DNA from: an uncultured Candidatus Berkelbacteria bacterium
GTDB taxonomy: Bacteria; Patescibacteriota; UBA1384; XYA2-FULL-43-10; CAINNR01
Length of the DNA: 64,000 nucleotides
NCBI GenBank assembly: GCA_903851235.1
Contig: CAINNR010000032.1
Location: forward strand, 25-64,024
Direction of reading: 5' to 3'
Shown here: positions 8,215-61,400 of the stretch, piece by piece
Numbering within the stretch: the stretch's first letter is position 1
How the letters are laid out: each line of letters begins with the position of its first letter
The notes under the pieces: generated by a model
What the model saw: the letters and a program-made list of their open reading frames with translations, nothing else
Databases searched by the model: none
Told to the model about the DNA's origin: nothing
Made by a program: the position numbers and the translations under genes

Positions 8215-8223
8215 GAGGATTGA

Positions 8224-37337: not shown

Positions 37338-37413
37338 GGGGTCGTAGTGTAGTGGTTATCACGTCTCCCTGTCACGGAGAAGATCGCCGGTTCGAGTCCG
37401 GTCGACCCCGCCA
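37338..37413 (+). tRNA. tRNA-Asp (anticodon GTC). It marks the left boundary of the cassette array.
   Basis: Acceptor ggggtcg/cgacccc, anticodon stem-loop tctcc-ctGTCac-ggaga, T-arm ccggt-tcgagtc-cggt, discriminator g, CCA. A TTGAAT-17-TAAAGT promoter lies upstream. Confidence 0.85.
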
Positions 37414-38723: not shown

Positions 38724-38830
38724 CCGCGCCCCCGCTAGGGCAGGTCACAAACCCATCCCCAATACTCTTCAGTTGCGGGGAAGGACCAGAGCAATCAAAA
38801 CATTGATTTTTCTGGTCCTTTTTTAAATCA

Positions 38831-39744: not shown

Positions 39745-41175
39745 CTATGCCGAGGTGGCATGGGAATTGATCGTGTCATAGAGATTGTCGACCTTGCACT
39801 TGAAGAGGCCGGGGTCCTCTGTTAGTATCCACATCAGCTCAAGTACAGAGTCATGGATCTCCTCGCACTTGAAATGAGGCGAACGCAGGTCTCTCGTGGT
39901 CTGATAGTTCTCTCCTCGACAGTTGCCGGCACAGATATACCTGATATCGCAAGCCGCGCATTTTGGATTCATACTATCGATGTTCAGACTGCGAAGATCC
40001 GTCAGAATGGGGGATCCCTTCCAGATCTCAGCCAAACTATCGGTTTTCAGATTGCCCAGGCAGAAATCGGGGACCGCAGTATCGGCGCATGGGTACAGTG
40101 TGCCGTCCGGTTTAACGTAAACCGCTCGATTCGTACCGATTCCACAGCCGAAGCTTTTGACGCCTCCTGCGATTCCCATCACTTGGTTTGCGAAGGTCGA
40201 GTACATCATCAACTGCTGAAGTCGCTGATCATCTCGTATTGCTTCGAAAACCTTCCGGTAGAAATCCGCCAAAGGGACAGCAACGAGTTGTTGCTTCGTT
40301 TCGGCGCTGTTGCCTCGGCCTACATTCATCATGTTTAAACAGTTAAGGCCTTGGACTCCAAGAGAATCGACCAACTTGAGTGTTGGTCGGACCTCATCGA
40401 TATTGCCTGCGTGAATAAACATGTTGACGGCAACTGAGATCCCTGCGTCGCACAGTGCCTTGATGTTGTTGACTGTTGTAGTGAATGTTCCCTCTCCACG
40501 GATGTATTCGTGGCTCTCAGCCCGACATCCGTCAAGGGAAATCGACATTTTCAGCCGGGGATATTTCGCCAGTTGTTTGATATCTGCTGGCGCCAACAGA
40601 GTCGCATTGGTGTTCACTTGAGCGAAATAGCCATGGTTGTGAACATATTCAATCAGATCCATGGCATCGGGGCGGGTAAACAGCTCACCGCCGGTTAGGG
40701 CAACGCGCGATATGCCGTTTTCCCAGGGCATACTCGAAAGTTGATCGATAACTGCTTTGATTTCGACAGAAGTCATCTCGCCGGGGATCTTCTCTTTGGC
40801 CATGGCATAACACATTGCGCATTCCATGTTGCAGAGTTGAGTTGTGGCGATAACCAAGACATTTTCGACTTCATTGACTTGGAAATCCGGCTTATTCTCT
40901 TCGACATCAACCTTCTCACCATCTACTACCAGCACTCCAGCGGAGTGCAGCAGATCGATAGTTTCAGCGACGATGTCGCCAGCCTCCTCTGCTGAGAGTC
41001 CCAATTGGGTTCTGATCTTAGTGACAGCCACATCAGAGTTTCCACAAGCCAACGACTCAAGGATGAGGGCAATCTCCGCCGTTGCAGAGAACCAGTAGGG
41101 TGCTGAGGGAAAGATCACGACTGCTGATTCTTCCCTGAAATAGACCGATGGTTTTTCGGTGAATGCCAACTGCAT
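39745..41175 (-). CDS. Cassette 4: radical SAM enzyme with a C-terminal SPASM domain and a ~110-aa N-terminal extension (a possible RiPP recognition element). Likely a peptide-modifying maturase. GC-rich.
   Basis: 'CNMECAMC' (CxxxCxxC) and C-terminal 'CAACDIRYICAGNCRGENY'. RBS GGGAGA lies before ATG at 41175. Confidence 0.8.
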   Translation of the reverse strand: MQLAFTEKPSVYFREESAVVIFPSAPYWFSATAEIALILESLACGNSDVAVTKIRTQLGLSAEEAGDIVAETIDLLHSAGVLVVDGEKVDVEENKPDFQVNEVENVLVIATTQLCNMECAMCYAMAKEKIPGEMTSVEIKAVIDQLSSMPWENGISRVALTGGELFTRPDAMDLIEYVHNHGYFAQVNTNATLLAPADIKQLAKYPRLKMSISLDGCRAESHEYIRGEGTFTTTVNNIKALCDAGISVAVNMFIHAGNIDEVRPTLKLVDSLGVQGLNCLNMMNVGRGNSAETKQQLVAVPLADFYRKVFEAIRDDQRLQQLMMYSTFANQVMGIAGGVKSFGCGIGTNRAVYVKPDGTLYPCADTAVPDFCLGNLKTDSLAEIWKGSPILTDLRSLNIDSMNPKCAACDIRYICAGNCRGENYQTTRDLRSPHFKCEEIHDSVLELMWILTEDPGLFKCKVDNLYDTINSHATSA

Positions 41176-44503: not shown

Positions 44504-44574
44504 CCAGTCACCAATTCTGCTTCTTTCACACTCGCCCCTTGATCGGGGCCTTTTTTAATTCAAATTTCCATTAC

Positions 44575-44929: not shown

Positions 44930-45460
44930 ATGAACGCCAGCAAAGTGATTAGAATGCAGTTGACCAAAAGAAGGCTTCCGGCCGTGTGGGAGCGCGGCGG
45001 TTACACTGGCATCAGTATTGACAGTGAGCCAGTGGGTATTGGGATCGTCTGGGCTAACCCGGATGGTATGCCCTATCGCCCATATTTCATTCAGGACACC
45101 GAACCGAACGACCAGCAGGCATTGGTTCCTGTCGAGAACGGGAGCTGGATGGTCGTTGCGAGACAGTGGCATCCTGGTAGATTCAACTATGAGGTCTGCC
45201 AGGTTACCGATGTTCGCACCGATCCAGACTCGTACGGCTTGTCTTTGAGTGAAGTGTTTCAGATGACCGATGGTGAGCCAGACTATCAGTGGCGTCATGA
45301 ATGGCTCAGCTGTTGGTCTCAACAGAAGTCGCACGGCCACCCTCAATCCGTGATCTCAGCCGTACCCATCACACTGAAGGCGGCTATCGACGCCGCCCTG
45401 GCCAAATGCCAGTGCCCGGGTTGCAGGGAAGCACACTATGTGCTGCCTCGCAAGAAGTAG
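44930..45460 (+). CDS. Cassette 9: GC-rich hypothetical protein.
   Basis: 176 aa with a strong SD and no family recognised. Confidence 0.55.
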   Translation: MNASKVIRMQLTKRRLPAVWERGGYTGISIDSEPVGIGIVWANPDGMPYRPYFIQDTEPNDQQALVPVENGSWMVVARQWHPGRFNYEVCQVTDVRTDPDSYGLSLSEVFQMTDGEPDYQWRHEWLSCWSQQKSHGHPQSVISAVPITLKAAIDAALAKCQCPGCREAHYVLPRKK

Positions 45461-45498
45461 CAACAACAAGGAGGACGGACATCAGTTGTTCGTCTTCC

Positions 45499-45549
45499 CC
45501 CTCAACACATTAAGTGTTCTGATGAGTCGTTGAAATTACGACGAAAGGG
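45499..45549 (+). ncRNA. Hammerhead ribozyme (type III, open helix III), copy 1.
   Basis: CCCU-C|AACAC-auuaa-GUGUU-CUGAUGA-G-UCG-uugaaauua-CGA-C-GAAA-GGG. All core nucleotides are present. Helix I is a 5-bp hairpin, helix II is 4 bp closed by the conserved G10.1-C11.1 pair, and helix III is CCCU/AGGG. The predicted cleavage is after C at 45503. Confidence 0.75.
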
Positions 45550-45554
45550 ATAAA

Positions 45555-45653
45555 CAAAATAGTTCTAACTCCCTTCGCTATGCTCCGCCATTAAAAATAG
45601 TCGCTCTAGAAGCGATTATTTTTCTATGTGATAGACAGGATGTAAAACTTTTG
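45555..45653 (+). repeat. Boundary element E9.
   Basis: caaaatagttctaactcccttcgctatgctccgccattaaaaatagtcgctctagaagcgattatttttctatgtgatagacaggatgtaaaacttttg. Confidence 0.8.
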
Positions 45654-45685
45654 TATTCTTAAGCAATTAAAATATAATGTAACTA

Positions 45686-45714
45686 TTGACATTTTATAAC
45701 TTTCTTGCTATAAC
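45686..45714 (+). promoter_or_regulatory. Promoter of cassette 10.
   Basis: aactaTTGACA, 17 nt, TATAAC. An SD (AGGGAGG) then precedes the GTG start. Confidence 0.5.
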
Positions 45715-45750: not shown

Positions 45751-46077
45751 GTGACCAGTCAGGAAATACGAGATGCATTGACCGGCGTCGTCGCGGGCAC
45801 CAAGCTACGCCTTACCTTCAACGCTGGGAGTGGCAAGAAGGGCTTTCTCGATGGTGAGACCAAGGCGGCAGTCTGCTACTTCGTAATGATGAAGGACGCG
45901 AACATCATCTTTCCGGACGAGATGGACTGGGCCGTGATGTACGCCGTCGGGTTGTCAGGGTATTGGGATCACGATTCGAACCGCATTGTCGAGGTTCTGA
46001 TCCCAGAGGGTTTCAATCTCGACTGGTTCTCCCAGCGTCTCGAAGGCGGGTTGGAGAAGCTCGAAGTCATCGGATGA
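45751..46077 (+). CDS. Cassette 10: GC-rich hypothetical protein.
   Basis: 108 aa, GTG start. The terminator caccacctagc...ggctggtggtttttgtttt (46104-46140) belongs to the same family as the one after cassette 16. Confidence 0.5.
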   Translation: MTSQEIRDALTGVVAGTKLRLTFNAGSGKKGFLDGETKAAVCYFVMMKDANIIFPDEMDWAVMYAVGLSGYWDHDSNRIVEVLIPEGFNLDWFSQRLEGGLEKLEVIG

Positions 46078-46160
46078 GTTACTCCGACGACAGGTGTAAA
46101 GATCACCACCTAGCTGTAACAGGCTGGTGGTTTTTGTTTTAGACAGCGAAATTCTTGAAA

Positions 46161-46232
46161 CAAAATGTTCCAACTTCCTCTGCTGTCTACTGCCAATAAA
46201 TTAGTCTCTGATAGAGAGTCTTTTTTTGTGTA
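46161..46232 (+). repeat. Degenerate boundary element E10.
   Basis: aaatgttccaacttcctctgctgtctactgccaataaattagtctctgatagagagtctttttttgtgtact. Confidence 0.5.
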
Positions 46233-46283
46233 CTATTGGTTCCACTTGGTCTATAAATCGACTTTGTATGGTAGAATGAAGCC

Positions 46284-47679: not shown

Positions 47680-47913
47680 ATGACACTCGGACTCATACTG
47701 CTGGTCGCTGGAGTTATTGCATTTTTGGTAGGATTTGCCATTGCAGCGAACAACATGGCTTCAGTCGCCAAGAACCCTGACGACATGCTTGACAGCCAGA
47801 ACAACCCGTTCGTGAAGCATCTTGGCGCCATGGTAGTCATGGCCTTCGGTGGTGGTAGCGCGCTCATCGGCCTTGTCCTAATCGTCATTGCGCTGGTCGG
47901 CAAACACGCGTAG
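47680..47913 (+). CDS. Cassette 14: small GC-rich two-TM membrane protein.
   Basis: 77 aa, MTLGLILLVAGVIAFLVGFAIAA... Confidence 0.55.
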   Translation: MTLGLILLVAGVIAFLVGFAIAANNMASVAKNPDDMLDSQNNPFVKHLGAMVVMAFGGGSALIGLVLIVIALVGKHA

Positions 47914-47966
47914 TAAGCACAACAACAGAGGGGATTCACTAAGAGGGTACGAAGTTGTACTCTCCC

Positions 47967-48017
47967 CCCTCAACATTAAATTGTTCTGATGAGTCGTTGA
48001 AAATTACGACGAAAGGG
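47967..48017 (+). ncRNA. Hammerhead ribozyme (type III), copy 2.
   Basis: CCCU-C|AACA-uuaaau-UGUU-CUGAUGA-G-UCG-uugaaaauua-CGA-C-GAAA-GGG. Helix I is 4 bp; in copy 1 a compensatory change makes it 5 bp. Confidence 0.75.
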
Positions 48018-48021
48018 ATAA

Positions 48022-48112
48022 ACAAATAGTTCTATCATCCTCCATTACCTCTTACCATGAAAAAGTAGCCTTGGAAGCTATTTTTTTGTATATGGCAGAC
48101 CGAATGTAGAAC
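48022..48112 (+). repeat. Boundary element E14.
   Basis: caaatagttctatcatcctccattacctcttaccatgaaaaagtagccttggaagctatttttttgtatatggcagaccgaatgtagaacg. Confidence 0.8.
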
Positions 48113-48136
48113 GTCTGTCCTTCTAGGCTCACAACT

Positions 48137-48165
48137 ATTGACACACTTGGCACTTTTTGTTATAG
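48137..48165 (+). promoter_or_regulatory. Perfect-consensus promoter of cassette 15, duplicated at 62890-62918.
   Basis: aactaTTGACA-cacttggcactttttgt-TATAGT-gatttgcgaagac. The 46-bp segment 48133-48178 is almost identical to 62886-62931. Confidence 0.7.
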
Positions 48166-48196
48166 TGATTTGCGAAGACAGAATCCTGAAAGGATG

Positions 48197-48712
48197 TGTT
48201 TGTTTATGTCCTGCGGATGTCCGAGACCGTTGCTACTAGATGTTGATCTGCCGTTTCTGATCGAGACCGTCTTACCCCACGTGCTGGCCGAGGTTGCCAG
48301 AGTCAGCGACATGCGAGATCGAGAGGGTGGCATGTTCGTGTTGATGCGAGCCGTCACCGGCGAGATCATCGTCGGCCCGAAGCAGGTCGGCCAGATTAAC
48401 AACGGTAAGGAAGATAAGTACGCCGAGTTCGCTCAGGAGAAACCGGTTCGGCTCCTCGAACACCCAGATCACTGTCTGAGCTGGGAGAGTCGAGATCCGG
48501 ACAACAACAAGTGGGGTGGCGCCGTCAATGATGGCCTCTTCGTCTGGTCCTTCTCCGGACTCTCGGAGGAACAGGACGAAGCGCTCGTGCTGATGGCATC
48601 CCATCTCTGCGGCCGCATTCGCAACGGCGACCCCAAGGCAATGGCAGAGATTTCCAATAACAGAATCATCATCGACAATCCCTACCTCTTCTGGTGTCCT
48701 CGGGAGAGTTAG
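48197..48712 (+). CDS. Cassette 15: GC-rich hypothetical protein.
   Basis: About 170 aa (MCLFMSCGCPRPLLLDV...). The start is ambiguous between ATGs at 48197 and 48209; the track uses TTG at 48170. Confidence 0.5.
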   Translation, partial: CLFMSCGCPRPLLLDVDLPFLIETVLPHVLAEVARVSDMRDREGGMFVLMRAVTGEIIVGPKQVGQINNGKEDKYAEFAQEKPVRLLEHPDHCLSWESRDPDNNKWGGAVNDGLFVWSFSGLSEEQDEALVLMASHLCGRIRNGDPKAMAEISNNRIIIDNPYLFWCPRES

Positions 48713-48762
48713 AGTGTCGGCGACACGGGGACTTACCCAAATGGGCACGACCTGTGCCCATT

Positions 48763-48813
48763 CCCTCAACATTAAATTGTTCTGATGAGTCGTTGAAAAT
48801 TACGACGAAAGGG
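48763..48813 (+). ncRNA. Hammerhead ribozyme (type III), copy 3.
   Basis: CCCU-C|AACA-uuaaau-UGUU-CUGAUGA-G-UCG-uugaaaauua-CGA-C-GAAA-GGG. It is preceded by the terminator-like hairpin gggcac-gacct-gtgccc. Confidence 0.75.
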
Positions 48814-48818
48814 ATGAG

Positions 48819-48918
48819 CAAATTGTTCTAGCTTACTACGCTATCTTCCGCCAATAAAAATAGTCGTTCTACGAGAGGTTATTTTTTTGTATATTGCGGA
48901 CCGGATGCAGAACTTTTG
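48819..48918 (+). repeat. Boundary element E15.
   Basis: caaattgttctagcttactacgctatcttccgccaataaaaatagtcgttctacgagaggttatttttttgtatattgcggaccggatgcagaacttttg. Confidence 0.8.
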
Positions 48919-48950
48919 TCTTTATTGACCATTGAAACATCACAAATCTA

Positions 48951-48979
48951 TTGACATTATATGATATACGTGATATATT
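48951..48979 (+). promoter_or_regulatory. Consensus promoter of cassette 16.
   Basis: tctaTTGACA, 17 nt, TATATT. The leader has an SD (taGGAGtctgcaATG). Confidence 0.55.
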
Positions 48980-49048: not shown

Positions 49049-49282
49049 ATGGCCACGCCTAAGAAAATCGCCATGCTTCTCTTCGGAGCAGGGTACCGTT
49101 TGTCCTTGACAGATGGGCACTACCGCTTCAGCGACAGATCAGGCAAGACGCTGCTTCAGCGCGACCAACCACCATCACGCTTTGATTTCGAAGTTCTTCA
49201 ATTTGCTAAGGGATCTGGGATTATCATCTCGAGCAATACCGATGTTGCCGAAGTAGCACGAGAACTAGCACAGATGGAGTAG
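49049..49282 (+). CDS. Cassette 16: GC-rich hypothetical protein.
   Basis: 77 aa. Terminator cccaccacctagccatatcaggctggtggtttttgtttt at 49295-49333. Confidence 0.5.
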   Translation: MATPKKIAMLLFGAGYRLSLTDGHYRFSDRSGKTLLQRDQPPSRFDFEVLQFAKGSGIIISSNTDVAEVARELAQME

Positions 49283-49354
49283 CGCGACTTGCGACCCACC
49301 ACCTAGCCATATCAGGCTGGTGGTTTTTGTTTTATCGGCCAAAATTATCGAGGC

Positions 49355-49400
49355 AAAAAAATTCTAACTTCCTAGTTGATCTCCGACAATGAAAAATCGC
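49355..49400 (+). repeat. Degenerate boundary element E16 (left half).
   Basis: aaaaaaattctaacttcctagttgatctccgacaatgaaaaat. Confidence 0.45.
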
Positions 49401-50813: not shown

Positions 50814-52088
50814 ATGAATCGATCGATCTCAGTAATTGGCTTGGGATATGTTGGCTTACCGCTTGCAATCTTGGCGGATCAGAAAAACTATCATGTAATA
50901 GGCATTGATACTGATCCTAAAAAGATTGCATTGCTAAACAAAAAACTATCACCTTTCCATGATAAAAAAATATCCAAGGATTTAAAAACTAGCGGTATCA
51001 TTGCCAGCCAAGATTATAATAATATCCAAAAATCTTCGATTATAATAATATGTGTTCCCACTCCGGTGAATGATGATCATACTCCAAACCTTAGCCCGGT
51101 TATAAATGCCTGCAAATCACTAGCTCCTTTTTTGCAAAAAGGCCAATTAATCATCCTTGAATCAACTGTTAATCCCGGCGTATCAGAAGATATCGTTCTG
51201 CCAATCTTAGAAAAAATATCAGGATTAAAGTGCGGGCCGGATTTTTCACTGGCTCACTGTCCAGAGAGAATCAACCCAGGTGATAAGAAATGGACTGTTG
51301 AGAATATTCCTAGAGTTATCGGCGCAACGGATGAAACCGGGTTGAAAAGAGCAGCTGAATTCTATCGCTCAATCATCAAAGGTGAAATAAAAGAAATGAA
51401 AACTATCAAAGAAGCAGAGGCTGTAAAAGTGGTTGAAAATTCATTTCGTGATATAAATATTGCTTTCGTCAATGAGCTCGCGATGTCTTTTGACAACCTG
51501 GGTATTGATGTCGTTAATGTCATCAACGGTGCCGCTACCAAACCCTTCGCCTTTATGGCCCACTACCCCGGTTGTGGAGTCGGTGGACATTGTATTCCGG
51601 TTGATCCATACTATCTTATTGAGTACGCTAGAAAGCATGGCTTTCAAAACGACTTTTTGTTGATGGCTCGTAATGTAAATAACAAAATGCCAAAATATAC
51701 TGCTGACAAAGTTTCTGATGAATTAAACCAAAAGAAGATAGCAATCAATGGCACCAAAGTCGCCGTATTGGGTTTGTCGTATAAATCAAATGTTGGTGAT
51801 GATCGGGAAAGTCCGTCATACAAAATCATACAAAATCTCGAAAAACTTGGCGCTGAAGTTGCCAGTTTCGACTCATATATTCCAGACAAATCCAGCGCTA
51901 GCACTCTGGAAGACGCTATCAACGGGGCCAAAGCGGTTGTAATTGCGACCTGCCATAAGGAATTTAGGAAGTTGACGCCAGAATATCTACGATCGTCTGG
52001 AATTGAAGTTGTAGTTGATGGGCGGAATTGCTTAAGTAAGGAGATTTTTTCCAGCTCTGGAATTATATATAAAGGTATTGGGCAGTAA
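50814..52088 (+). CDS. Nucleotide-sugar dehydrogenase (UDP-glucose/GDP-mannose dehydrogenase family).
   Basis: 'ISVIGLGYVGLPLAILADQ' Rossmann N-terminus and the catalytic-Cys region 'GGHCIPVDPYYL'. Confidence 0.85.
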   Translation: MNRSISVIGLGYVGLPLAILADQKNYHVIGIDTDPKKIALLNKKLSPFHDKKISKDLKTSGIIASQDYNNIQKSSIIIICVPTPVNDDHTPNLSPVINACKSLAPFLQKGQLIILESTVNPGVSEDIVLPILEKISGLKCGPDFSLAHCPERINPGDKKWTVENIPRVIGATDETGLKRAAEFYRSIIKGEIKEMKTIKEAEAVKVVENSFRDINIAFVNELAMSFDNLGIDVVNVINGAATKPFAFMAHYPGCGVGGHCIPVDPYYLIEYARKHGFQNDFLLMARNVNNKMPKYTADKVSDELNQKKIAINGTKVAVLGLSYKSNVGDDRESPSYKIIQNLEKLGAEVASFDSYIPDKSSASTLEDAINGAKAVVIATCHKEFRKLTPEYLRSSGIEVVVDGRNCLSKEIFSSSGIIYKGIGQ

Positions 52089-52091
52089 ATA

Positions 52092-53486
52092 ATGAATCTT
52101 TTATTCTCCAAAATTTCTCAGATATTAGACAAATTAATACGAAAAGAGGAAAAGCTCCGGCTTATTCCGCATTTTATTGTTATCTGTATTTTTACATTTC
52201 TAATTGCTAAAGTAGTTTTCAGGTCACCTACTTCCAATACAATATTATTTACTTATGGGATCACGGTCACATCAATATTATTTATGACTTTTACCGTCGC
52301 ATTTATCTTCTACAGGGATCCTTATGAAAAAGCTATGAAGGAAGCTAAAAAACTTTCCAAAATGGCGGACCCATTGGTTAGTTGCATGGTTGCAGTATTT
52401 AATGAAGAAAAAATTATTGAACAATGTGTTTTGTCAATTGTAAATCAAACATATCAGAATAAGGAAGTCATCTTCGTAAATGATAAAAGTACTGATAAAA
52501 CCGGCAAAATTCTCGATCGACTTGAAAAAAAATACAACTTCCGAACAATCCATCTGAAACAGAATCTTGGCAAGAAAGGTGCGCTTGCTCGCGCATGTCA
52601 TGAAGCAAAAGGCGATATACTGGCTTTTTCCGATAGTGATTCAATATGGGCCCCTGATGCGATAGAAAAAATTGTACCAATTTTTAAACACGACTCAAAA
52701 GTGGGGGCAGTTAGCGGTCATACACTGGCATTAAATGCCACTAAAAATCTACTCACAAGAGTCCAAGATTCCTGGTACGAAGGTCAATACTCCATCAGGA
52801 AAGCGTTTGAAAGTGTTTTCGGATGTGTAACTTGTGTTTCAGGTCCCCTAGCCGTTTTTCGTAGAGAAAGTATTTATAATTATATACCGGCATGGGAACA
52901 TGATAAGTTTTTGGGTCAACCATTTCGCTTTGCTACCGATCGAACTCTGACCGGCTTTGTCCTGGGTAGTAAATATATTAGTAAACGCATAAAGAAGAAA
53001 TACGCTACATCACCATTTATGAGCATTGATTATCCAGCGCAGGATTGGAAGATAGTATATTGCAAAGCTGCGCATGCCTGGACAGAAGTACCTGATACTT
53101 TTCGTGGGGTGATAAAACAACAAACGCGTTGGAAGAAGAGTTTTATCCGAAACATTTTTTTCACAGGCCGTTTCTATTGGCATAAACCACTTTTGCCTAC
53201 TCTGGTATATTACTTGCATATTGTCTTTGTTGTACTGGGCCCATTCGTTGTTTTTCGTCATCTAATTTACTTACCACTAAATGGAAATCTGTATTCAATG
53301 TTTCTCTACTTGGCTGGTATCTGTTTTATCGGTTTAATGTTCGGATTGGCAATAAAGCTTGAAGATCCAAAATCTCACCGTTGGATTTATCGACCGCTTA
53401 TGAGTCTGTTTTCAACACTGGTTTTGTCATGGCTTATTTTTTATTCAGCCTTAACTATCCGCAAGATGTTTTGGTCAAGGAATTAG
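52092..53486 (+). CDS. Processive family-2 glycosyltransferase (cellulose/chitin/hyaluronan-synthase-like), membrane-embedded.
   Basis: 'VAVFNEEKIIEQCVLSIVNQTY', 'VNDKSTD', 'FSDSDS', 'QQTRWKKSF' (QxxRW motif). Flanking TM helices. Confidence 0.8.
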   Translation: MNLLFSKISQILDKLIRKEEKLRLIPHFIVICIFTFLIAKVVFRSPTSNTILFTYGITVTSILFMTFTVAFIFYRDPYEKAMKEAKKLSKMADPLVSCMVAVFNEEKIIEQCVLSIVNQTYQNKEVIFVNDKSTDKTGKILDRLEKKYNFRTIHLKQNLGKKGALARACHEAKGDILAFSDSDSIWAPDAIEKIVPIFKHDSKVGAVSGHTLALNATKNLLTRVQDSWYEGQYSIRKAFESVFGCVTCVSGPLAVFRRESIYNYIPAWEHDKFLGQPFRFATDRTLTGFVLGSKYISKRIKKKYATSPFMSIDYPAQDWKIVYCKAAHAWTEVPDTFRGVIKQQTRWKKSFIRNIFFTGRFYWHKPLLPTLVYYLHIVFVVLGPFVVFRHLIYLPLNGNLYSMFLYLAGICFIGLMFGLAIKLEDPKSHRWIYRPLMSLFSTLVLSWLIFYSALTIRKMFWSRN

Positions 53487-53487
53487 T

Positions 53488-56400
53488 GTGAAAATCTTAC
53501 ACTTGAGAAAATTGGAAAAAAAAGCGAAGAAAATTAATAAAAGCAGCGCCAAAAAAGTAAGGCGTTTCTTTCGGAGACCTTCAACTCGCTGGATTGAAGT
53601 TGGAGTTTTTATTTTGTTGCTGCTTATATTCATCATAAAAACCACAAACTACATACATTGGGATGTCTTGAGTCCAGCACATGTTGCAGACTCGATTAAG
53701 AAAACTTTTGTACTAACAAAAAGAGATATTGCTGAGTTAAAATACTTCAAAAAATGTCCGGAAGGAGAGATTAAGGTCGATATCGGTATGAGCTATCTAT
53801 GTAGAGGTGAAACTAGCCCCGGCGTAGACCAAAAGATATATGATACATATCCAATCCACGGTAATGGCCGTGAGATAATTTATCCTTCGCTCGATGATGG
53901 CGATATTCAATCAGCTAATGACTTTGTAAACAACAAAATTGATATCAGTCGATATGATACGGTGTCATTGCCAGATGACCCTCAGTGGGATGAAGACCCA
54001 TATAATGATCGTTATTGGCGTATGAACTATTACAGTTTACGTCCAGTACTGGATCTGCTCTATGCCAGTAGAACAACCCACGACCCAAAGTACAACGATA
54101 AACTAATTACGACAGTTAATAGTTTTGTCACCACCGGCATAAACCGGCCTGACAGCTGGGATGATGCCCATGCAGTTGCTTTCCGGACAATGGCTCTTAC
54201 GGATATTTGGTGGAAAATGCGTGAGGAGCGAATACTTTCTATCGACGAAAGTAACAAGCTGCTAACTGCCCTCGAACAGCATGGTGAATATTTAGCGGAT
54301 CGTAATCATTATGACCCGGGGCAAAACCATGGGACAAACGAAGCAGCGGCGTTATACCTTCTGGCAAATAGTTTTCCTGATCTTCCCGGCTCATCAGGCT
54401 GGCTTAGCGTATCACAAGACAGGATCAATACCAGCATGGATAATCTTATCGATCAAGATGGTGCTTTAACTGAGAACTCTCCTTATTATCATTTCTACAC
54501 ATTACAAAAGTACTGGGATATTTACCAATATTCCAATCAACAGCGGCAGTATTTTAATCCAGAGTTTAAAAATAAACTCTACCAGATGATCTCTTATGCT
54601 ACGTATATCTTACAGCCTGATGACAGCCCCCCTCTCTTAGGGGCTTCACTGCAAACAATAATCAATAAGCATGCTGAATATGGTGAAATGGCTGCGATAG
54701 ATCCGCAATTTTTATATGTTCTTACTCAGGGCAAAAAAGGCAAAAAACCGAAGAATCTTAACAAATTCTATTCTGACACCGGTCAAACCATTATGCGTTC
54801 TGGCTGGGGTATGGGTGATGAGTTTATTAACCAGACTCAACTAATTTATGATGTAGGAGCTTATCGCACGGATCACAGCGATTACGACGCATTGAGTTTT
54901 TCTTTGTACTCAAACGGGATAACGCTTCTGCCTGATTCTGGTTTGTGTACATATGCCCCGGGACCTTACCGTGATTATTTTCATGGTACCGCCGCCCATA
55001 ATACCGTAGTAGTGGATGACAAAGACCAGGCAACGGGTTCAGCTTCGGCTGGTGATTTTGTGACGAATAAAGATTATACCCTGCAGACTGCTCAGCATCA
55101 GCTATATGCGGGCGTAACCCATGAACGCAGCATAATCATGCTGGATAAGTCACACAGCTTGATTATTGATAAGCTGATTTCGGAACAGGTTCATAATTAC
55201 AAGCAAATGTTTCATCTATTTCCAGGTGCTGTCTTTAGTAAAGATGGTTTAACCGTTAAGGGAGTGGGGGATAACCCAGAACAATCCATAACCGTCCAAC
55301 AGTTAAAGACAGATGGTATTACAGAGTCAGATTCTATCAATCAGACTTCTCCACCAGCTGGCATATGCTCAGAGGAGTACAATAGATACGTCCCGTGCGA
55401 ATCGGTTGCCTATAGCCAAAATGGAAAAGATGCTTATTTTGTGACTTTGCTAACCATCGGTAGTGGGGACCCGCAATTCCATGCAACATTAAGTGCAGAC
55501 CAATCAGAAATCACTATTGATCAAAACCACAAACATCTCAATTTCAAAGTCGGCCAGACTGAACAAAAAGCTGAAGTAATAAGGGCAACTGACCCTAAAG
55601 CCCCCGACTTCGCAAAAAACTCTGTGGCGGGATTTGACGACCTAAATAACTGGACTAGCGATCTTGGCACTCTCTCAAAAGATTCAACCTCTGGGGCGGT
55701 GTCTCTTCAACTAGCCGGTACAACAAAAGATCAAACAATGGAGAATAATAAGGTAAATATTGATTTATCTCACGCAAACATGGCGGTGCAAATGCGCATC
55801 ACGAATAGAGTAAACGTAAAAGATTTTGAACTGTCTCTATCTAATAATCACTGGTCAACTTTTGCCACAAACAATATTGATTATGCCTACGGTGCTGATT
55901 ATTATGGAGAATGGATCAACATTTCTCTCGGCAAAGGTACAGAAAGAGACAGGAATGGTCATTGGTCAATAAGTGGCCAATTCGATTGGGGCAAAATCGA
56001 TGGAGTGCGTCTAAAAATCACGGGGAAAGAAAATAGCAACAGTACCGTAGAGTTGGGATCTCTCTACACCACTCCAGAGCAGCAGCAGGGTGGAGTGGTT
56101 ATTGTCTTTGACGATGGTTACGATTCTGTTTTACCGGCAGCTGATTATCTCCGCCAACTGAATCTCAAAGCGAACATCGCTGTAATTGCCAAAGATGTTG
56201 TGACGCCCACGAGAGGATATCTTGGGTTAAATGACCTCAAGAATCTTCAGAATCAATTTGGCTGGAACATTGCAAGCCACTCCTATGATCACGTTGATGC
56301 CGTTCAAGCATATTTTCAGACGGGCGAACTGGATCAATACCAAGCAGATATTCTTGCTGGGGCAAAGTTTCTTTCAGATAATAAAATCGATAGTGCTCCC

Positions 56401-56919
56401 AATTGGTTTATATACCCTCACGGAACCACCAACAGTGCATTAAAAGCTGTAGTAAGTAAATACTACAAGTTTGCCAGAGTTACGACTAATGAGCCCGAGG
56501 TTTATCCTTTCGGTGACCCTTATCTTGTCAAAACTATGTCTGTGCAAAATAATTCGGATGGCTCTGAAGATATAGCTGATCAAAAGGTTGCAACAACGCC
56601 TGATGATGTTGCAAAAGCTGTTAGCGATGCTAAAAACTTTAAGACCACTTTATTCCTAACTTTCCACCGTATCCACTCTAAGCCATCAGACAGGCCAGGT
56701 TATGAGCTGACCGATTTTAAAAAAATCGCCGATAACCTTAAGCAGCAAAATATTTCAGTTTTAACACTTAGTGATCTAGACAAGCAAAATGGTGTTCCGC
56801 TTGATAATAAGATTATTTTTGGCGATAATAAACCTGCACAGTTGTCAATAGAGGTACAAGTTACATCAGACAGCATATTTAAAAGAATTAAAAGCTTATT
56901 CTCATGGCTAAAAATATAA
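53488..56919 (+). CDS. Large membrane-anchored fusion protein: a heparinase II/III-like (polysaccharide lyase or epimerase fold) domain plus a C-terminal NodB-type polysaccharide deacetylase.
   Basis: 1143 aa. N-terminal TM; 'DDAHAVAFRTMALTDIWW'; 'NHGTNEAAALYLLANSF'; C-terminal 'VVIVFDDGYDSVLPAADYL...IASHSYDHVD' (NodB motifs 1-3). Confidence 0.65.
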   Translation: MKILHLRKLEKKAKKINKSSAKKVRRFFRRPSTRWIEVGVFILLLLIFIIKTTNYIHWDVLSPAHVADSIKKTFVLTKRDIAELKYFKKCPEGEIKVDIGMSYLCRGETSPGVDQKIYDTYPIHGNGREIIYPSLDDGDIQSANDFVNNKIDISRYDTVSLPDDPQWDEDPYNDRYWRMNYYSLRPVLDLLYASRTTHDPKYNDKLITTVNSFVTTGINRPDSWDDAHAVAFRTMALTDIWWKMREERILSIDESNKLLTALEQHGEYLADRNHYDPGQNHGTNEAAALYLLANSFPDLPGSSGWLSVSQDRINTSMDNLIDQDGALTENSPYYHFYTLQKYWDIYQYSNQQRQYFNPEFKNKLYQMISYATYILQPDDSPPLLGASLQTIINKHAEYGEMAAIDPQFLYVLTQGKKGKKPKNLNKFYSDTGQTIMRSGWGMGDEFINQTQLIYDVGAYRTDHSDYDALSFSLYSNGITLLPDSGLCTYAPGPYRDYFHGTAAHNTVVVDDKDQATGSASAGDFVTNKDYTLQTAQHQLYAGVTHERSIIMLDKSHSLIIDKLISEQVHNYKQMFHLFPGAVFSKDGLTVKGVGDNPEQSITVQQLKTDGITESDSINQTSPPAGICSEEYNRYVPCESVAYSQNGKDAYFVTLLTIGSGDPQFHATLSADQSEITIDQNHKHLNFKVGQTEQKAEVIRATDPKAPDFAKNSVAGFDDLNNWTSDLGTLSKDSTSGAVSLQLAGTTKDQTMENNKVNIDLSHANMAVQMRITNRVNVKDFELSLSNNHWSTFATNNIDYAYGADYYGEWINISLGKGTERDRNGHWSISGQFDWGKIDGVRLKITGKENSNSTVELGSLYTTPEQQQGGVVIVFDDGYDSVLPAADYLRQLNLKANIAVIAKDVVTPTRGYLGLNDLKNLQNQFGWNIASHSYDHVDAVQAYFQTGELDQYQADILAGAKFLSDNKIDSAPNWFIYPHGTTNSALKAVVSKYYKFARVTTNEPEVYPFGDPYLVKTMSVQNNSDGSEDIADQKVATTPDDVAKAVSDAKNFKTTLFLTFHRIHSKPSDRPGYELTDFKKIADNLKQQNISVLTLSDLDKQNGVPLDNKIIFGDNKPAQLSIEVQVTSDSIFKRIKSLFSWLKI

Positions 56920-57731
56920 AAATATCGGCAATAGTTTTATTAATAATTATTGCGACCGTGGCCATAGGCAGCCTCTATTATTATCTGCATCGGACGAAAC
57001 AGGTTGATAAGAATAGTCAGACCCTGTTTCTTGATAAACTTGATGGATCTGACCGCCTAGTCACCAACGAGTATGTGTATTGGAATCCTAACTCAACTTG
57101 TCCGTATAAATCAGATAAGTGGGATATGACAAGCGGCACACTGCTGATCAAAAATGGAGTTGGTTATTCAGGGCTGCCTAACAAAGAGAGCCGATCTGTA
57201 TGTGAATCAAATAATCAAACAAATTCTTATACTTTTAGGCTTAATACCAAAGATGCTAGCTTCACTAACACAGTTACATCTCTAGATTACGAAATGCTCA
57301 AACATGGTGATGCTTCCAGTAATACCGAAAATTCCTATGACGGTTTACATATTTGGGTTCGATACCAAAGCCAATATGCGCTCTATGCAGTATCAATTAG
57401 TCGATGGGATGGTAACTTAGCGATTAAAAAGAAGGTACCCGTAGAGATAGCTCACTGCAGCGATCCATCAAATGAAGGCTGCTATTATGATCTTGTTAGT
57501 CAAGTCAATCGACCCGATCTTACAAAATCTGCTGTATGGCATCATGCAGACATCACCACTGAGGATAGATCGGATGGCAAACTTCAGATTAAATTAGTTA
57601 TAGATGGTCAGACCGCTCTTGAAGCAACCGATGGTGGTGAACATGATTCTGTTTATCACACTGGTGCAGTTGGTGTACGCGGAGACAACACAGAATTTTA
57701 CTTTAAAAATTTTTTGGTTAAAAAAACCTAA
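56904..57731 (+). CDS. Membrane-anchored secreted protein, hypothetical (a possible concanavalin/LamG-like carbohydrate-binding or lyase fold).
   Basis: N-terminal TM; a beta-rich sequence; its start overlaps the upstream gene. Confidence 0.45.
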   Translation: MAKNIKISAIVLLIIIATVAIGSLYYYLHRTKQVDKNSQTLFLDKLDGSDRLVTNEYVYWNPNSTCPYKSDKWDMTSGTLLIKNGVGYSGLPNKESRSVCESNNQTNSYTFRLNTKDASFTNTVTSLDYEMLKHGDASSNTENSYDGLHIWVRYQSQYALYAVSISRWDGNLAIKKKVPVEIAHCSDPSNEGCYYDLVSQVNRPDLTKSAVWHHADITTEDRSDGKLQIKLVIDGQTALEATDGGEHDSVYHTGAVGVRGDNTEFYFKNFLVKKT

Positions 57732-57981: not shown

Positions 57982-60516
57982 ATGTCTATGTTTTGGTTTG
58001 TGTTGCCGATTTTTGCTCTACTAGTAGCTATAGTCCGCAAGGATTTGCGCTTCCAAATGTTTTTGGCCGCCGTACTTTCAATTCCGATATTGATAATTAA
58101 ACCCCTAACCGATCCGAATTTTTTGCAAATAATAGCCGGTCTCGATCTAATAATTTTCTTTGCTGCTAGATTAATTATTGTTGCCTCATTTGCAGCCCTG
58201 GCGGCTGCGGTTTATGAACTATTTTTTCATAATAAAATTTCTCCTGTCCCGCACTCACAACGACCACGACTGCTCTGGTTGCTGAGTGGTCTTTTGTTCT
58301 TGGCTATATTGCTACTTTTGGGTCAAAGCTTTATTGTCGCTATTTTGGCGGCACTTTTGGTTGATCTGATAATAGTGATAATACTGCGCCCCGGTTTGAT
58401 TTGGGATGTCATCTTCTCCGGATTTTTCATGGGGTTTTTATATCTTTTTATTTATTTAATTGCATTTCGCGGTTTCCCCGGCGGACTAAATAATATTTGG
58501 TTTACGGATAGACTTTCCGGTCTAACGCTTTGGTCGCTGCCGGTTGAGGAGCTTCTGGCTGTGGTTTTGTTTGGTGCACTCGTTGGTCCGCTCTACACTG
58601 CAATTAAAACTTTAAAACTGCCAACTAAAATTATCCCATCAGAAGTCTCCGAAAAGAAGCTTGCAAATCCTAAAGTTATTTTTGGTTGGTTGATAATAGT
58701 TTTTTCTTTGCTTGCAATTTTGTTTGGGGCTTATTATTTTGTGATTCCACCGAAGGTCTCTACTTCAACGCCAAAAAATAGTACTTCCAGTGTTGGTTTG
58801 GTTGATGACATCGGTCTTAAATTCAACAAACCAATAAATCGTGATGTCATAAATTTTTCAATTCTACCAGACGTTTCCGGAGTCTGGCATTTTTCCAACG
58901 GAACATTGGCTAATCATTTATTTAGCCAAGCAAATTTTACGCCGGACAAACCACTTGCGGCAGAACAAGAATATACGATTAAAGTCACTAATATCCGTAA
59001 TTTAATCAATACTTCTTCCGGTGCCGATTTTCAATTTTCTTTCCGAACTGAGAGTTTGCCGAAAATCGATCATGCATCAATTGCCGATGGACAAACTGGT
59101 GTGATGCTAAATGATCCGATTAATATTTATTTGAGTCAGAAAAATAATAAAGTCGTAGATTTTAATTTCAAATTTGATCCAGCCGTTGATTTTACACCGT
59201 CAATTTCGGCTGATGGAATGCAGTATACTCTAAAATTAAACCAGCCGCTGACTCAAGGCGCAGTTTACAAATTAACGACGCTTGGTTGGATTTTGCCTGG
59301 TGCTGGAAATCCGGCCCCAGACGCTAATTGGCAAATGGCTTTTACCACAAAAGAGCCGCCAGCGCTTGCCAGTTACACCCCTCAAGGCAGTGGAATTTTG
59401 ACTGACAGTGGAAATATCACTTTGAATTTTGTTCAACCAATGGTTCAAGATGATGTATTGGGTCATATTTCAATTACTCCGGAGATAAAAGGCAGTTGGA
59501 AATGGCAGACTTCGACGAAACTGGTTTACAGCATCAACCAAAAATTATCGTTTGCTACCGGATACACAATTTTAATTGCTAAAGGTGTCCACGATCAATC
59601 GGGCGGTTTTATTGATAATGATATCAAAGCCACTTTTACTACTATCGGGAGTGTTCAAGTCAGTATTTTTTCGCCGAAAAACGCTGGTAGTAATGTCGCT
59701 ACCGATGCAAAAATATCAATTACTTTTGATCAGGCAGTTGACCACGGTTCAGCCGAGCGTGCTTTTTCAGTTTCACCGACTCTAAGTGGCAATTTTTCTT
59801 GGAGCGGTAATAAGATGATTTTTTCTCCCGATGGATTAAAGAAAGATTCGACTTACAATATCAATCTCGCGGCCGGCATCAAAAGTATCTCCGGTCTTGA
59901 TTCGAACAAAATCTTTTCCGCCAGTTTTTCCACTATTACCAGTTCTATTATTCTAAATATTGGAATTGATTATCAGGACCAGGCGCTTTCCTGCGAAGCG
60001 GCGTCGCTGAAAATGGCACTGAACTACCGTGGTGTCGGCGTGACTGAAAACGATATCATGGCTCGAATCGGTTACGACCCAACAATCCGAAATGGCAACA
60101 TTTGGGGTAATCCGAATAATGCTTTTGTCGGCAGTATTAACGGTCGGCAAGATACTACCGGCTATGGTGTTTACTGGCAGCCGATTGCCAGGGCTGCAAA
60201 TGTTTGGCGATCGGCAATTGCTTTTTCCGGCTGGTCGCCAAGCCAAATTGCCGGAGCGATCGCCGACAATAATCCGGTTATTTTGTGGGGAACTTACGGC
60301 AACGCTTCGCGTGATGATTGGCAAACGCCGGACGGCCAGCATATTCTCGCTTGGAAGGGAGAACATGCCAGAACAATTATCGGTTTTTTGGGCACAGCTG
60401 ACAACCCTACTAGCTTTGTTATCAATGATCCTGTCGCCGGACGAATAACCTGGACCGCTGCCCAACTTGCCGGTAACATGTCAGCTTTCGCTGGTAGCGG
60501 AGTCGTAGTTTATTGA
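57982..60516 (+). CDS. Large membrane protein: an N-terminal polytopic domain, bacterial Ig-like repeats and a C-terminal C39-like (Peptidase_C39_2) domain.
   Basis: 844 aa. Repeated Big-like '...S.S..I.I.F...V' segments. The C-terminal 'YQDQALSCEAASLKMALNYRGVGVTENDIMARIGYD' carries a catalytic Cys context. An extended -10 (TGcTACAAT) lies upstream. Confidence 0.6.
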   Translation: MSMFWFVLPIFALLVAIVRKDLRFQMFLAAVLSIPILIIKPLTDPNFLQIIAGLDLIIFFAARLIIVASFAALAAAVYELFFHNKISPVPHSQRPRLLWLLSGLLFLAILLLLGQSFIVAILAALLVDLIIVIILRPGLIWDVIFSGFFMGFLYLFIYLIAFRGFPGGLNNIWFTDRLSGLTLWSLPVEELLAVVLFGALVGPLYTAIKTLKLPTKIIPSEVSEKKLANPKVIFGWLIIVFSLLAILFGAYYFVIPPKVSTSTPKNSTSSVGLVDDIGLKFNKPINRDVINFSILPDVSGVWHFSNGTLANHLFSQANFTPDKPLAAEQEYTIKVTNIRNLINTSSGADFQFSFRTESLPKIDHASIADGQTGVMLNDPINIYLSQKNNKVVDFNFKFDPAVDFTPSISADGMQYTLKLNQPLTQGAVYKLTTLGWILPGAGNPAPDANWQMAFTTKEPPALASYTPQGSGILTDSGNITLNFVQPMVQDDVLGHISITPEIKGSWKWQTSTKLVYSINQKLSFATGYTILIAKGVHDQSGGFIDNDIKATFTTIGSVQVSIFSPKNAGSNVATDAKISITFDQAVDHGSAERAFSVSPTLSGNFSWSGNKMIFSPDGLKKDSTYNINLAAGIKSISGLDSNKIFSASFSTITSSIILNIGIDYQDQALSCEAASLKMALNYRGVGVTENDIMARIGYDPTIRNGNIWGNPNNAFVGSINGRQDTTGYGVYWQPIARAANVWRSAIAFSGWSPSQIAGAIADNNPVILWGTYGNASRDDWQTPDGQHILAWKGEHARTIIGFLGTADNPTSFVINDPVAGRITWTAAQLAGNMSAFAGSGVVVY

Positions 60517-61400
60517 CACCAATATTAATTTATAGTACAGTAAGGATTAAGCAAATCAATCAAAAAAAACAAATGGATAATAACGATAATTCTATTGGGA
60601 GAGAAGAAATCAAAACTTTTGGCGATTATTATTACCGGCCAAAAGCTAAACGCAATTCCTGGTTGAAAATTACCGGGCTGATTTTGCTTGTCGCAATTTT
60701 TCTTGGCGCTGGTTACTATGGGTATCGTCGTTGGCGTTCAAATAGATTAACAGAGAATAACTCCATTGTCGATGTTCCGGTGATAGAAAAGCCAGCCATT
60801 GTCTCGCCGTCAAATCCGGTTATCACACCAGCGGCAATTCCGGCTTCCGGTATGCTTATCGTACCATTTACGACTCAAGCGCCGTTTGCCAATTGGGATG
60901 CCACACACGAGGAGGCTTGTGAAGAAGCCAGTTTAATTATGCTTCATCATTATCAAAACGGAACTGCGATTGACTCCCCAACTTCGGCCGACAAAGAGAT
61001 TTTGGATTTAATCAGTTGGGAAACCGATAATGGTTATGGTGTTGATGTTACACTTGAACAACTTTCTGATATTGCCAGACGGTATTATGGTATGAGCAGT
61101 GGCCGAATTATTACCGATGTTACTACCGACACGATCAAAAAGGAGATCTCGGCCGGTCATCCGATAATTATACCGGCTGCGGGAAAAATCCTGCCGAATC
61201 CGAATTTCCGCGATGGCGGTCCAAACTATCACATGCTGGTTATAATCGGATATAATCAAACAGACTTTATCACCAACGATCCCGGTACCAGAAATGGCCA
61301 AAATTTTCACTATACTTACGATGGTCTCTTAAATGCTGTCCATGATTGGAACCCTGACAATATTCTTAACGGTCCAAAAGAACTCCTAGTTTTTGACTGA
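60513..61400 (+). CDS. Membrane-anchored C39-like peptidase domain protein.
   Basis: 'FTTQAPFANWDATHEEACEEASLIMLHHY' (Cys) ... 'HMLVIIGYN...DP' (His). The start may be ATG at 60573. Confidence 0.6.
   Translation: MTPILIYSTVRIKQINQKKQMDNNDNSIGREEIKTFGDYYYRPKAKRNSWLKITGLILLVAIFLGAGYYGYRRWRSNRLTENNSIVDVPVIEKPAIVSPSNPVITPAAIPASGMLIVPFTTQAPFANWDATHEEACEEASLIMLHHYQNGTAIDSPTSADKEILDLISWETDNGYGVDVTLEQLSDIARRYYGMSSGRIITDVTTDTIKKEISAGHPIIIPAAGKILPNPNFRDGGPNYHMLVIIGYNQTDFITNDPGTRNGQNFHYTYDGLLNAVHDWNPDNILNGPKELLVFD

Follow-up and report, generated by a model that had tools for sequence, protein, structure and literature searches.

A recurrent terminator-like hairpin behind unrelated cargo genes in a tRNA-Asp-anchored cassette array of a Candidatus Berkelbacteria genome

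Background

Sedentary chromosomal integrons have attC sites that are homogeneous within an array (Escudero et al. 2015, as cited in PMC5737381), and integron cassettes are usually promoterless. Here we describe a cassette array of a related but distinct design in a 64,000-nucleotide stretch of the genome of an uncultured Candidatus Berkelbacteria bacterium (assembly GCA_903851235.1, contig CAINNR010000032.1, positions 25 to 64,024; this whole stretch is hereafter called the window, and coordinates refer to it unless another contig is named). Our subject is a hairpin of 35-41 nt, named T1, which a first-pass annotation of the window had noticed at the 3' ends of two GC-rich cassettes. With moderate confidence, we interpret T1 as a Rho-independent terminator that is part of the non-coding scaffold in some of the cassettes and has been kept while the cargo was exchanged.

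The array resembles an integron in several ways. Its units mostly contain a single gene, are unrelated in function and are mostly in one orientation, related genomes differ in its content, an imperfect palindrome of about 100 nt, which is array-specific and not cargo-specific, ends each unit, and the composition of the cargo is unlike that of the host. However, no IntI-type integrase adjoins it (the neighbouring gene at the start of the array is RsmH/MraW), and the repeat derives from a tRNA 3' end and is without RYYYAAC / GTTRRRY boxes; its left arm holds TTCTAAC, which agrees at six of seven positions, and its right arm has GTAGAAC, not GTTRRRY. The classical attC/integron reading thus fails on the core-site consensus and the integrase requirement. 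In addition, the cassettes here carry their own promoter and terminator, with promoter-like sites (repeat families D10 and D17) upstream of individual open reading frames (ORFs), and a conserved T1 or hammerhead stands between ORF and repeat.

In Prochlorococcus, tandem integration of tycheposons at tRNA genes leaves partial tRNA copies (bioRxiv 10.1101/2020.12.28.424599). The present array likewise starts at an intact tRNA gene and has partial copies of the tRNA 3' end between its units, as does a second array behind a tRNA-Glu gene on another contig, L007. It differs from tycheposons in its cassettes, which are 0.5-1 kb long with a single ORF and no integrase, replication genes or recombinase domain, and in its repeat, which extends about 70 nt past the tRNA and has an inverted copy of the T-arm; moreover, its pseudo-tRNA copies have diverged too far for the tRNA to be restored from them.

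Clustered bacterial hammerheads were found to flank single genes of non-constant identity in prophage regions, a placement that suggests cleavage of the transcripts into mRNAs of single-gene length (Perreault et al. 2011, PMC3088659). In the window, too, hammerheads lie between single, varying genes of mobile DNA, following the same logic as an exchangeable 3'-end module. Here, however, the hammerheads lie outside any prophage or integrase context, their stem III is short, their Rfam scores are sub-threshold, and the slot that they occupy is filled in other cassettes by a conserved terminator.

The DNA uptake sequences (DUS) of Neisseria and the uptake signal sequences (USS) of Haemophilus occur about once per kb genome-wide, and their inverted pairs double as terminators. 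T1 is similar to these pairs as a terminator found behind unrelated genes with a conserved stem sequence (conserved in DUS and USS through the second function), but its arm sequence GCTGGTGG occurs only 5 times in 64 kb. With regard to integron cassettes, Leon and Roy reportedly proposed in 2009 that they arise by the action of group IIC-attC introns, which target terminators and attC sites. In that scheme, cassette formation leaves the terminator of a gene immediately ahead of the recombination repeat, and the two cassettes with unique terminators fit the idea; however, the window contains no intron or reverse transcriptase, and an identical T1 behind unrelated genes is not predicted by independent capture of genes with their own terminators. 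We found no literature description of this type of array. Intrinsic terminators are a known class, and what is new is the conserved, exchangeable T1 3' module beside the hammerhead in a tRNA-anchored array.

Results

Two T1 copies in the window

The search pattern CCACCTAGCNNNNNCAGGCTGGTGGTTTTTGTTTT identified CCACCTAGC-N5-CAGGCTGGTGGTTTTTGTTTT at 46106-46140 and 49299-49333, both on the + strand, as the sole two matches in the window, and it was found in none of 100 dinucleotide-preserving shuffles of the window (0 expected by chance). The claim of the first-pass annotation that its cassettes 10 and 16 end with one common terminator is thereby upheld. Its placement of the first string, 46104-46140, was exact, whereas the second string is 38 nt long and starts at 49296 instead of 49295.

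Copy 1 (46104-46140, + strand) is composed of CCACC-U-AGCU, the loop GUAACA and GGCU-GGUGG, followed by UUUUUGUUUU; copy 2 (49296-49333, + strand) has the same stem and U-run with the loop AUAUCA. When folded, both copies formed a hairpin of 9-10 bp with 7 G:C pairs and a bulged U, again followed by UUUUUGUUUU; T1 hairpin energies ranged from -13 to -22 kcal/mol, with minimum free energies of -15 to -22 kcal/mol for the 9-10 bp stem and its U-run, and a consensus scan gave a terminator-like call for both. The U-runs lie at 46136-46140 and 49329-49333. The G+C-rich hairpin directly before a U-run is consistent with a Rho-independent terminator, as is the location just downstream of a coding region in the same orientation: the T1 string starts 26 nt (46104 copy) and 13 nt (49296 copy) past the ORF stop codons. 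The annotation had spoken of an unusual terminator, which is appropriate for the invariant sequence described below but not for the architecture, which is canonical. Both copies lie at a junction between GC-rich cargo and AT-rich host-like sequence, and spacers of 26 nt (AT-rich, 46141-46166) and 27 nt (49334-49360), both on the + strand, connect them to the boundary repeat, as we call the palindrome that ends each unit.

Because each copy was reproduced in several independent ENA/Logan assemblies (L003-L006, L014), the T1 copies are not an assembly artefact. The ENA records bear names of the form BUCK21-1_SAMEA68727xx and may belong to the stratified-lake dataset of Buck et al. 2021 (PMC8121793). 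Note that a scaffold gap of Ns falls within T1 in L004, and that L006 (Logan assembly ERR4193245, 1331-1491) diverges from the window about 45 nt past T1 copy 1 without a boundary repeat, which may reflect strain variation or a break in the assembly at the repeat.

Within the 3' arm of T1 lies GCTGGTGG, the Chi octamer of Escherichia coli (46123-46130 and 49316-49323). The octamer was expected 0.84 times in the 64-kb window and occurs five times, two of these being the T1 copies themselves. This enrichment is too small to support a role as Chi or as an uptake sequence, since the three non-T1 copies per 64 kb are far below the densities of Chi or DUS, and we treat the octamer in the T1 arm as a coincidence.

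T1 beyond the window

The exact T1 pattern had no match in 185,579 species represented by one genome each, or in the 2.9 million contigs of IMG/VR, and BLASTN of the hammerhead-to-T1 block gave no match in phage or plasmid records. A metagenome scan for exact T1 recovered at least two contigs, L001 (Ga0265297_10049227) and L002 (Ga0172381_10024399), in both of which the hairpin begins about 30 nt past the ORF end. In L002, T1 stands behind a 136-aa GC-rich ORF and the boundary repeat lies 25 nt farther on; in L001, T1 is 26 nt from the boundary repeat. L002 is 99% identical over common blocks to the longer contig L010. The tRNA-Asp of L002 is 100% identical to that of the window; the cassettes behind it and the synteny ahead of it are different, and a SurA-like gene has approximately 74% DNA identity, indicating that L002 comes from a relative at moderate distance whose array is filled differently.

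In L001, the gene ahead of T1 is a 560-aa orotidine monophosphate (OMP) decarboxylase/phosphoribosyltransferase ORF (59% GC), and between this ORF and T1 lie 39 codons that match the C-terminal end of the L002 ORF (tblastn E 2e-16). The 39-codon ORF (L001 290-412, - strand) overlaps the stop codon of the OMP-decarboxylase/phosphoribosyltransferase ORF (TGATG) and keeps the C-terminal motif of the L002 protein, YDPxDxPWCSVxFRxxNRTGRMxVFQxxPNPV; it may be a remnant or a retained mini-domain. Since a different gene precedes the remnant of the L002 ORF, which in turn is followed by T1, the cargo appears to have been swapped while T1 stayed.

Therefore, four independent copies were available for comparison: window 46104, window 49296, L001 and L002 (equal to L010). 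All four lie downstream of a + strand GC-rich cargo and 25-27 nt upstream of a boundary repeat. A chance resemblance, convergence or an assembly artefact has the small number of copies in its favour and nothing else; with no match in the shuffles, a core that is identical in the four copies outside five variable columns, and recovery from independent ENA and Logan assemblies, we assign this explanation a negligible probability.

Conservation of T1 and its flanks

The mean pairwise identity of the four copies was 0.93 in T1, 0.56 in the 30 nt upstream, 0.56 in the spacer, and 0.66 in the first 35 nt of the boundary repeat behind T1; an identity of about 56% in the flanks is near the random level under gapped alignment. 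An ungapped comparison of the spacers by hand showed 50-58% identity, which, together with their near-constant length (25, 26, 26 and 27 nt), indicates that T1, the spacer and the repeat form a block of common descent. Five columns of T1 vary, three in the loop and two in the stem. The two stem changes, from A:U to G.U and from C:G to U.G, both keep the pairing, and neither is a double change among the four copies; the rest of the stem, the bulged T and the U-run are invariant. A covariance model of the four copies, which scores the window copies at 73.1 bits (copy 1) and 69.3 bits (copy 2), was run with the filters off on 99 kb (the window and four loci) and detected only those four copies, with one weak extra match of 24 bits in a different context (L010 6651-6684), possibly an internally deleted T1 relic.

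An island of 93% identity between barely alignable flanks, and a possible relic elsewhere, might also be expected if T1 were a tiny mobile or converting element, similar to miniature inverted-repeat transposable elements (MITEs) or repetitive extragenic palindromes (REPs), that was inserted independently behind different genes. However, T1 has no terminal inverted repeats beyond the hairpin and no target-site duplications, its orientation and its 25-27 nt distance to the boundary repeat are always the same, and the covariance-model search showed no dispersed copies in the window or the other loci. We consider such an element very improbable.

Similarity of the two T1 cassettes of the window is limited to T1 (92%), the -35 region, and the hammerhead and boundary repeat that precede each cassette (95 nt with 86% identity); their 5' untranslated regions (UTRs) and ORFs are unrelated. 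A recent duplication of the whole scaffold as one block gained no support, as the repeats after T1 are 0.63 identical and those before it 0.77, both within the general range of 0.56-0.80.

Cargo of the T1 cassettes

The cargo ORF of the first T1 cassette (45751-46077, + strand) encodes 108 aa (GC 0.557; G+C content at third codon positions, GC3, 0.725) and has a GTG start 7 nt after GGGAGG. It is preceded on the same strand by a promoter-like site at 45686-45714 (TTGACA, 17 nt, TATAAC; repeat family D10). The ORF of the second (49049-49282, + strand; 77 aa, GC 0.509) is an orphan, with a promoter-like site at 48951-48979 (+ strand; TTGACA, 17 nt, TATATT, TG before; 11 of 12 consensus positions). 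BLASTP did not align the two ORFs even at E<=100, and when all cassette ORFs of the array were compared with one another, no paralogous pair appeared, by which paralogy is ruled out as the reason for the common T1. The annotation had named paralogous ORFs, with a similarity limited to the two cassettes, as what would refute its proposal; instead, the ORFs are not paralogous and T1 stands behind other cargo on at least two more metagenome contigs.

No GC-rich cargo, including the 45751-46077 ORF, belongs to any credible Pfam or PHROG family, and the structure predicted for this 108-aa protein has a mean pLDDT (predicted local distance difference test) of 58, with residues 27-74 below 50. Among 5.8 billion proteins, it has two homologues of 66% and 59% identity, both encoded in cassette-like units with their own TTGACA promoters in other arrays, and both followed by terminators unrelated to T1. 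The protein search revealed no relatives of the 77-aa ORF, and none of the 136-aa ORF of L002 besides the remnant in L001. The GC3 of the T1-linked cargo ranges from 0.53 to 0.73, and all T1 cargos are GC-rich relative to the host.

The annotation had suggested common donors for cassettes with common 3' ends, and T1 could then have come with its ORFs from a single donor lineage or vector in which T1 is common. The GC richness of every T1 cargo, and the position of T1 at the very point where GC-rich cargo gives way to AT-rich host-like sequence, are consistent with such an origin. On the other hand, exact T1 is absent from the species genomes, IMG/VR, and the phage and plasmid records searched, both metagenome contigs recovered with T1 carry arrays of the same type as the window, so that T1 was found nowhere outside such arrays, and the cargo GC3 values are widely spread. 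Furthermore, homology does not stop at T1 but extends across the spacer to the boundary repeat, which is host-specific, and the homologues of the 45751-46077 ORF have other terminators. A common donor is thus not supported, and we regard it as quite improbable.

Cassette anatomy and alternative 3' modules

The small GC-rich cassette ORFs have a GC content of 0.51-0.57 (DnaK, 0.45), and each is preceded by a near-consensus promoter-like site (TTGACA, 17 nt, TATAAT-like), a 5' UTR and a ribosome-binding site. In all seven GC-rich small-ORF cassettes of the window, an extra 3' module lies ahead of the boundary repeat, whereas the AT-rich cassettes inspected run straight into the boundary repeat with its own terminator. 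The modules of the seven cassettes are hammerheads in three, T1 in two and unique terminators in two (38779-38826 and 44534-44556), in agreement with the earlier proposal that the GC-rich cassettes fall into sub-families by their 3' ends.

The hammerhead said to be common to three cassettes is also confirmed. Type III hammerhead-like modules are present on the + strand at 45496-45552, behind the ORF 44930-45460 (40.6 bits, E 1e-5), at 47964-48020, behind the ORF 47680-47913 (32.4 bits), and at 48760-48816, behind the ORF 48170-48712 (36.1 bits); the first ends 10-11 nt before the repeat. They match Rfam Hammerhead_3 (RF00008) with E values from 1e-5 to 2e-3, but no score reaches the gathering score of 48.5, and a run at that threshold reported none of them. 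In the alignments, nothing is missing from the catalytic core, with CUGAUGAG...CGAAA and a CUC cleavage triplet, and stem III has 3-4 bp. Cleavage after CUC would fall at about 45503, 47971 and 48767. The hammerhead pattern had no match in viral contigs.

The predicted cleavage sites of two successive hammerheads (47964-48816) are 796 nt apart, which is exactly one cassette. Cutting of a read-through transcript would be predicted to release an RNA of unit length whose ends, 5'-OH and 2',3'-cyclic phosphate, are substrates for circle ligation.

The boundary repeat and the tRNA-Asp anchor

The array is anchored by a tRNA-Asp(GTC) gene with an encoded CCA (37338-37413, + strand), and at least 17 units, parted by the boundary repeat of about 100 nt, run from this gene to the end of the window (37338-64000). 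The tRNA-Asp 3' end with about 70 nt downstream is the first copy of the boundary repeat, and repeat families D1-D4 align to this region. In order, the repeat consists of AAAAAGTTCTAAC, a stretch ending in CCGCCA, in which the T-arm through CCA is copied in degenerate form, an A-run, the hairpin AGTCGCTCTAGAAGCGAT, a T-run and GGCAGACCGGATGTAGAACTTTTGT. A pseudo tRNA-Asp 3' end is thus joined to a terminator and to a T-arm copy in inverted orientation. On folding, the unit gives a long, imperfect hairpin whose outer arms, AAAAGTTCTA and TAGAACTTTT, are inverted repeats. The z-scores of the DNA fold were -2.7 to -5.6, and 75.6% of cells pair in the named structure, in comparison with 33-47% when the partners are slid. 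Because covariation was not above that of shuffles, we describe the boundary repeat as a conserved palindrome and not as a proven structure.

The repeats around the T1 cassettes are all on the + strand. Those upstream of the first (45556-45665) and second (48819-48929) cassettes score 91 and 81 bits, respectively. Behind T1 copy 1, the repeat (46161-46266) has a pseudo tRNA 3' end, the hairpin AGTCTCTGATAGAGAGTC with a T-run, and a degenerate right arm, and behind copy 2 only a degenerate repeat with a weak score of 9 bits is seen (49356-49400). The boundary-repeat pattern had no match in the contigs of the species genomes, and three IMG/VR matches to a degenerate form of the pattern were dismissed as chance, as none fits the boundary-repeat hidden Markov model and none has a tRNA.

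In other respects, the window is an ordinary chromosome segment of about 42% GC, with genes for RuvB, QueA, QueH, GrpE, DnaK, DnaJ, pyruvate phosphate dikinase and RsmH. Among the larger units of the array are a polysaccharide operon (50814-57731) and genes for C39-like peptidases (57982-61400). A GC-rich (0.505) radical SAM/SPASM gene (39745-41175, - strand) lies reversed in an otherwise AT-rich unit of 3.4 kb and adjoins a methyltransferase gene.

Related arrays

A second array of the same design is present behind a tRNA-Glu gene in an unrelated genome (L007 6317-13595; GCA_040961635.1, JBFOMZ010000015.1). Its cassette boundaries repeat the 3' end of tRNA-Glu, GGTTCGATTCCCCTATGCGCTACA, with an inverted copy of the T-arm, GGGGAATCGAA, downstream, and one of its cassettes carries the 59%-identical homologue of the window ORF 45751-46077. 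In this array, a 131-nt unit is duplicated with 98% identity (6433-6563 and 8088-8218).

The 99%-identical arrays of L010 and L002 differ by one cassette of 1446 bp with an RsgA-like GTPase gene (L010 1749-3193 vs L002 3227-3241). In L010, this cassette has boundary repeats on both sides, whereas the empty site in L002 has no repeat but 13 unrelated nucleotides.

Small GC-rich hairpin repeats were observed within the boundary repeats of L002 (4110-4190 and 4895-4920) and L010 (1080-1215, 1835-1860 and 3150-3180); they are CCGTAACCCGAAGGGTGAAGGAGGG-like or have the form CCCGAAGGGG...CCTTCGGGG, and they look like miniature invasive elements. In L009, a motif of about 80 nt, GGGGTTGAGAAACCNCGACA...CCGCCAACGGAAAGTTGGCA...CCTGGCC, occurs three times in the position of the boundary repeat (1-80, 730-810 and ~2210-2285) and had no Rfam match at E<=1.

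Discussion

The array is hypervariable and anchored at tRNA-Asp, and its cassettes are self-contained expression units. A cassette of this kind consists, in order, of a near-consensus sigma-70-type promoter, a 5' UTR with a ribosome-binding site, a foreign GC-rich ORF, a 3' module and the boundary repeat, with the slot of the 3' module filled by T1, a type III hammerhead or a unique terminator. In our interpretation of T1 as a terminator in a retained scaffold, the cassette mRNA would end at T1, 25-27 nt ahead of the boundary repeat, and the strongly promoted cargo transcript would thereby be kept out of the palindromic repeat and the next cassette; a hammerhead in the same slot would lead to the same outcome through cleavage of the mRNA, in agreement with the earlier finding on bacterial hammerheads (PMC3088659). 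T1, the spacer and the boundary repeat would be inherited as one block while the upstream cargo changes, and retention of this block through cargo exchange would be the reason why unrelated ORFs share T1. The anatomy, the recurrence of T1, its fixed spacing, the conservation by blocks and one replacement of cargo ahead of T1 are observations, while termination itself, insulation as its purpose and the route of cargo exchange are inferences.

Several points weigh against this interpretation. Termination at T1 is a prediction from the sequence, and the evidence on T1 comes from four independent copies. A generic terminator requires a structure only, yet, apart from the two pair-preserving changes, the sequences of the stem and the U-run are invariant amid near-saturated flanks, so that insulation alone is insufficient as an explanation. 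T1 also seems redundant, because the boundary repeat already has a terminator. With respect to the exchange of cargo, no recombinase family was detected among the 58 window ORFs run against Pfam (nearly all ORFs of at least 150 aa), and the single difference of a whole cassette that was observed, that of L002 against L010, does not have the form of a clean excision at the repeats.

The constraint on the exact sequence of T1 and its fixed distance from the repeat leave some room for a second, sequence-specific role, although we think such a role unlikely. Hairpins with extrahelical bases are known in integron attC sites and in IS200/IS605 or REP hairpins. Similarly, T1 might serve, primarily or additionally, as a hairpin recognised by another protein or by the machinery with which cassettes are built or moved. 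It would act in the form of RNA or of folded single-stranded DNA, at a set distance from the boundary repeat, and termination would be secondary. Such a role would account for a stem, bulged T and T-run that are invariant save for two pair-preserving changes, while the loop varies and the flanks are at about 56% identity, and for the 25-27 nt spacing, which is kept though the spacer sequence is free to change. The redundancy of T1 as a terminator and the imperfect palindrome of the boundary repeat itself, with its excess of pairing and z-scores down to -5.6, point in the same direction. Nevertheless, no partner protein was identified, and as only a minority of the cassettes have T1, the mobility of cassettes in general cannot depend on it. 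Occupation of the same slot by the hammerhead points to a function at the RNA 3' end and away from a site in DNA, the U-run that is conserved is just what termination requires, and four copies are too few to distinguish strong purifying selection from limited sampling. On balance, we give recognition by a protein a clearly lower probability than termination.

The first-pass annotation had also offered a common cassette-forming mechanism, which we regard as plausible for the array: the T1-repeat spacing of 25-27 nt and the change of cargo in L001 agree with it, whereas no enzyme or intermediate was identified. A bolder proposal is that the window holds a new integron-like system of gene capture of an uncultivated freshwater bacterium, in which the tRNA 3' end is the primary attachment site and the cassettes have a tRNA-derived, attC-like palindrome, their own promoters and an exchangeable, sequence-constrained 3' module (T1 or hammerhead). 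The capture machinery would recognise this module, or the module would set the ends of an RNA intermediate, in keeping with the distance of one cassette (796 nt) between two hammerhead cleavage sites. T1 would then be functional in cassette formation and more than a terminator. We put this forward as a speculation that is doubtful at present, and we continue to prefer T1 as a terminator of a retained scaffold.

Conclusions

For integrons, it is still an open question how any given ORF comes to be linked with a recombination repeat. In the array described here, the non-coding parts, namely the promoter, the 3' module and the tRNA-derived repeat, are modular and conserved, and the genes carried as cargo are foreign and bear no relation to one another. 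Should T1 be no more than a terminator, it would be a modest example of the reuse of a scaffold in a hypervariable island. If a wider survey agrees with the present results, these arrays would be a tractable system for cassette genesis and insulation, and they would provide a functional context for bacterial hammerheads.

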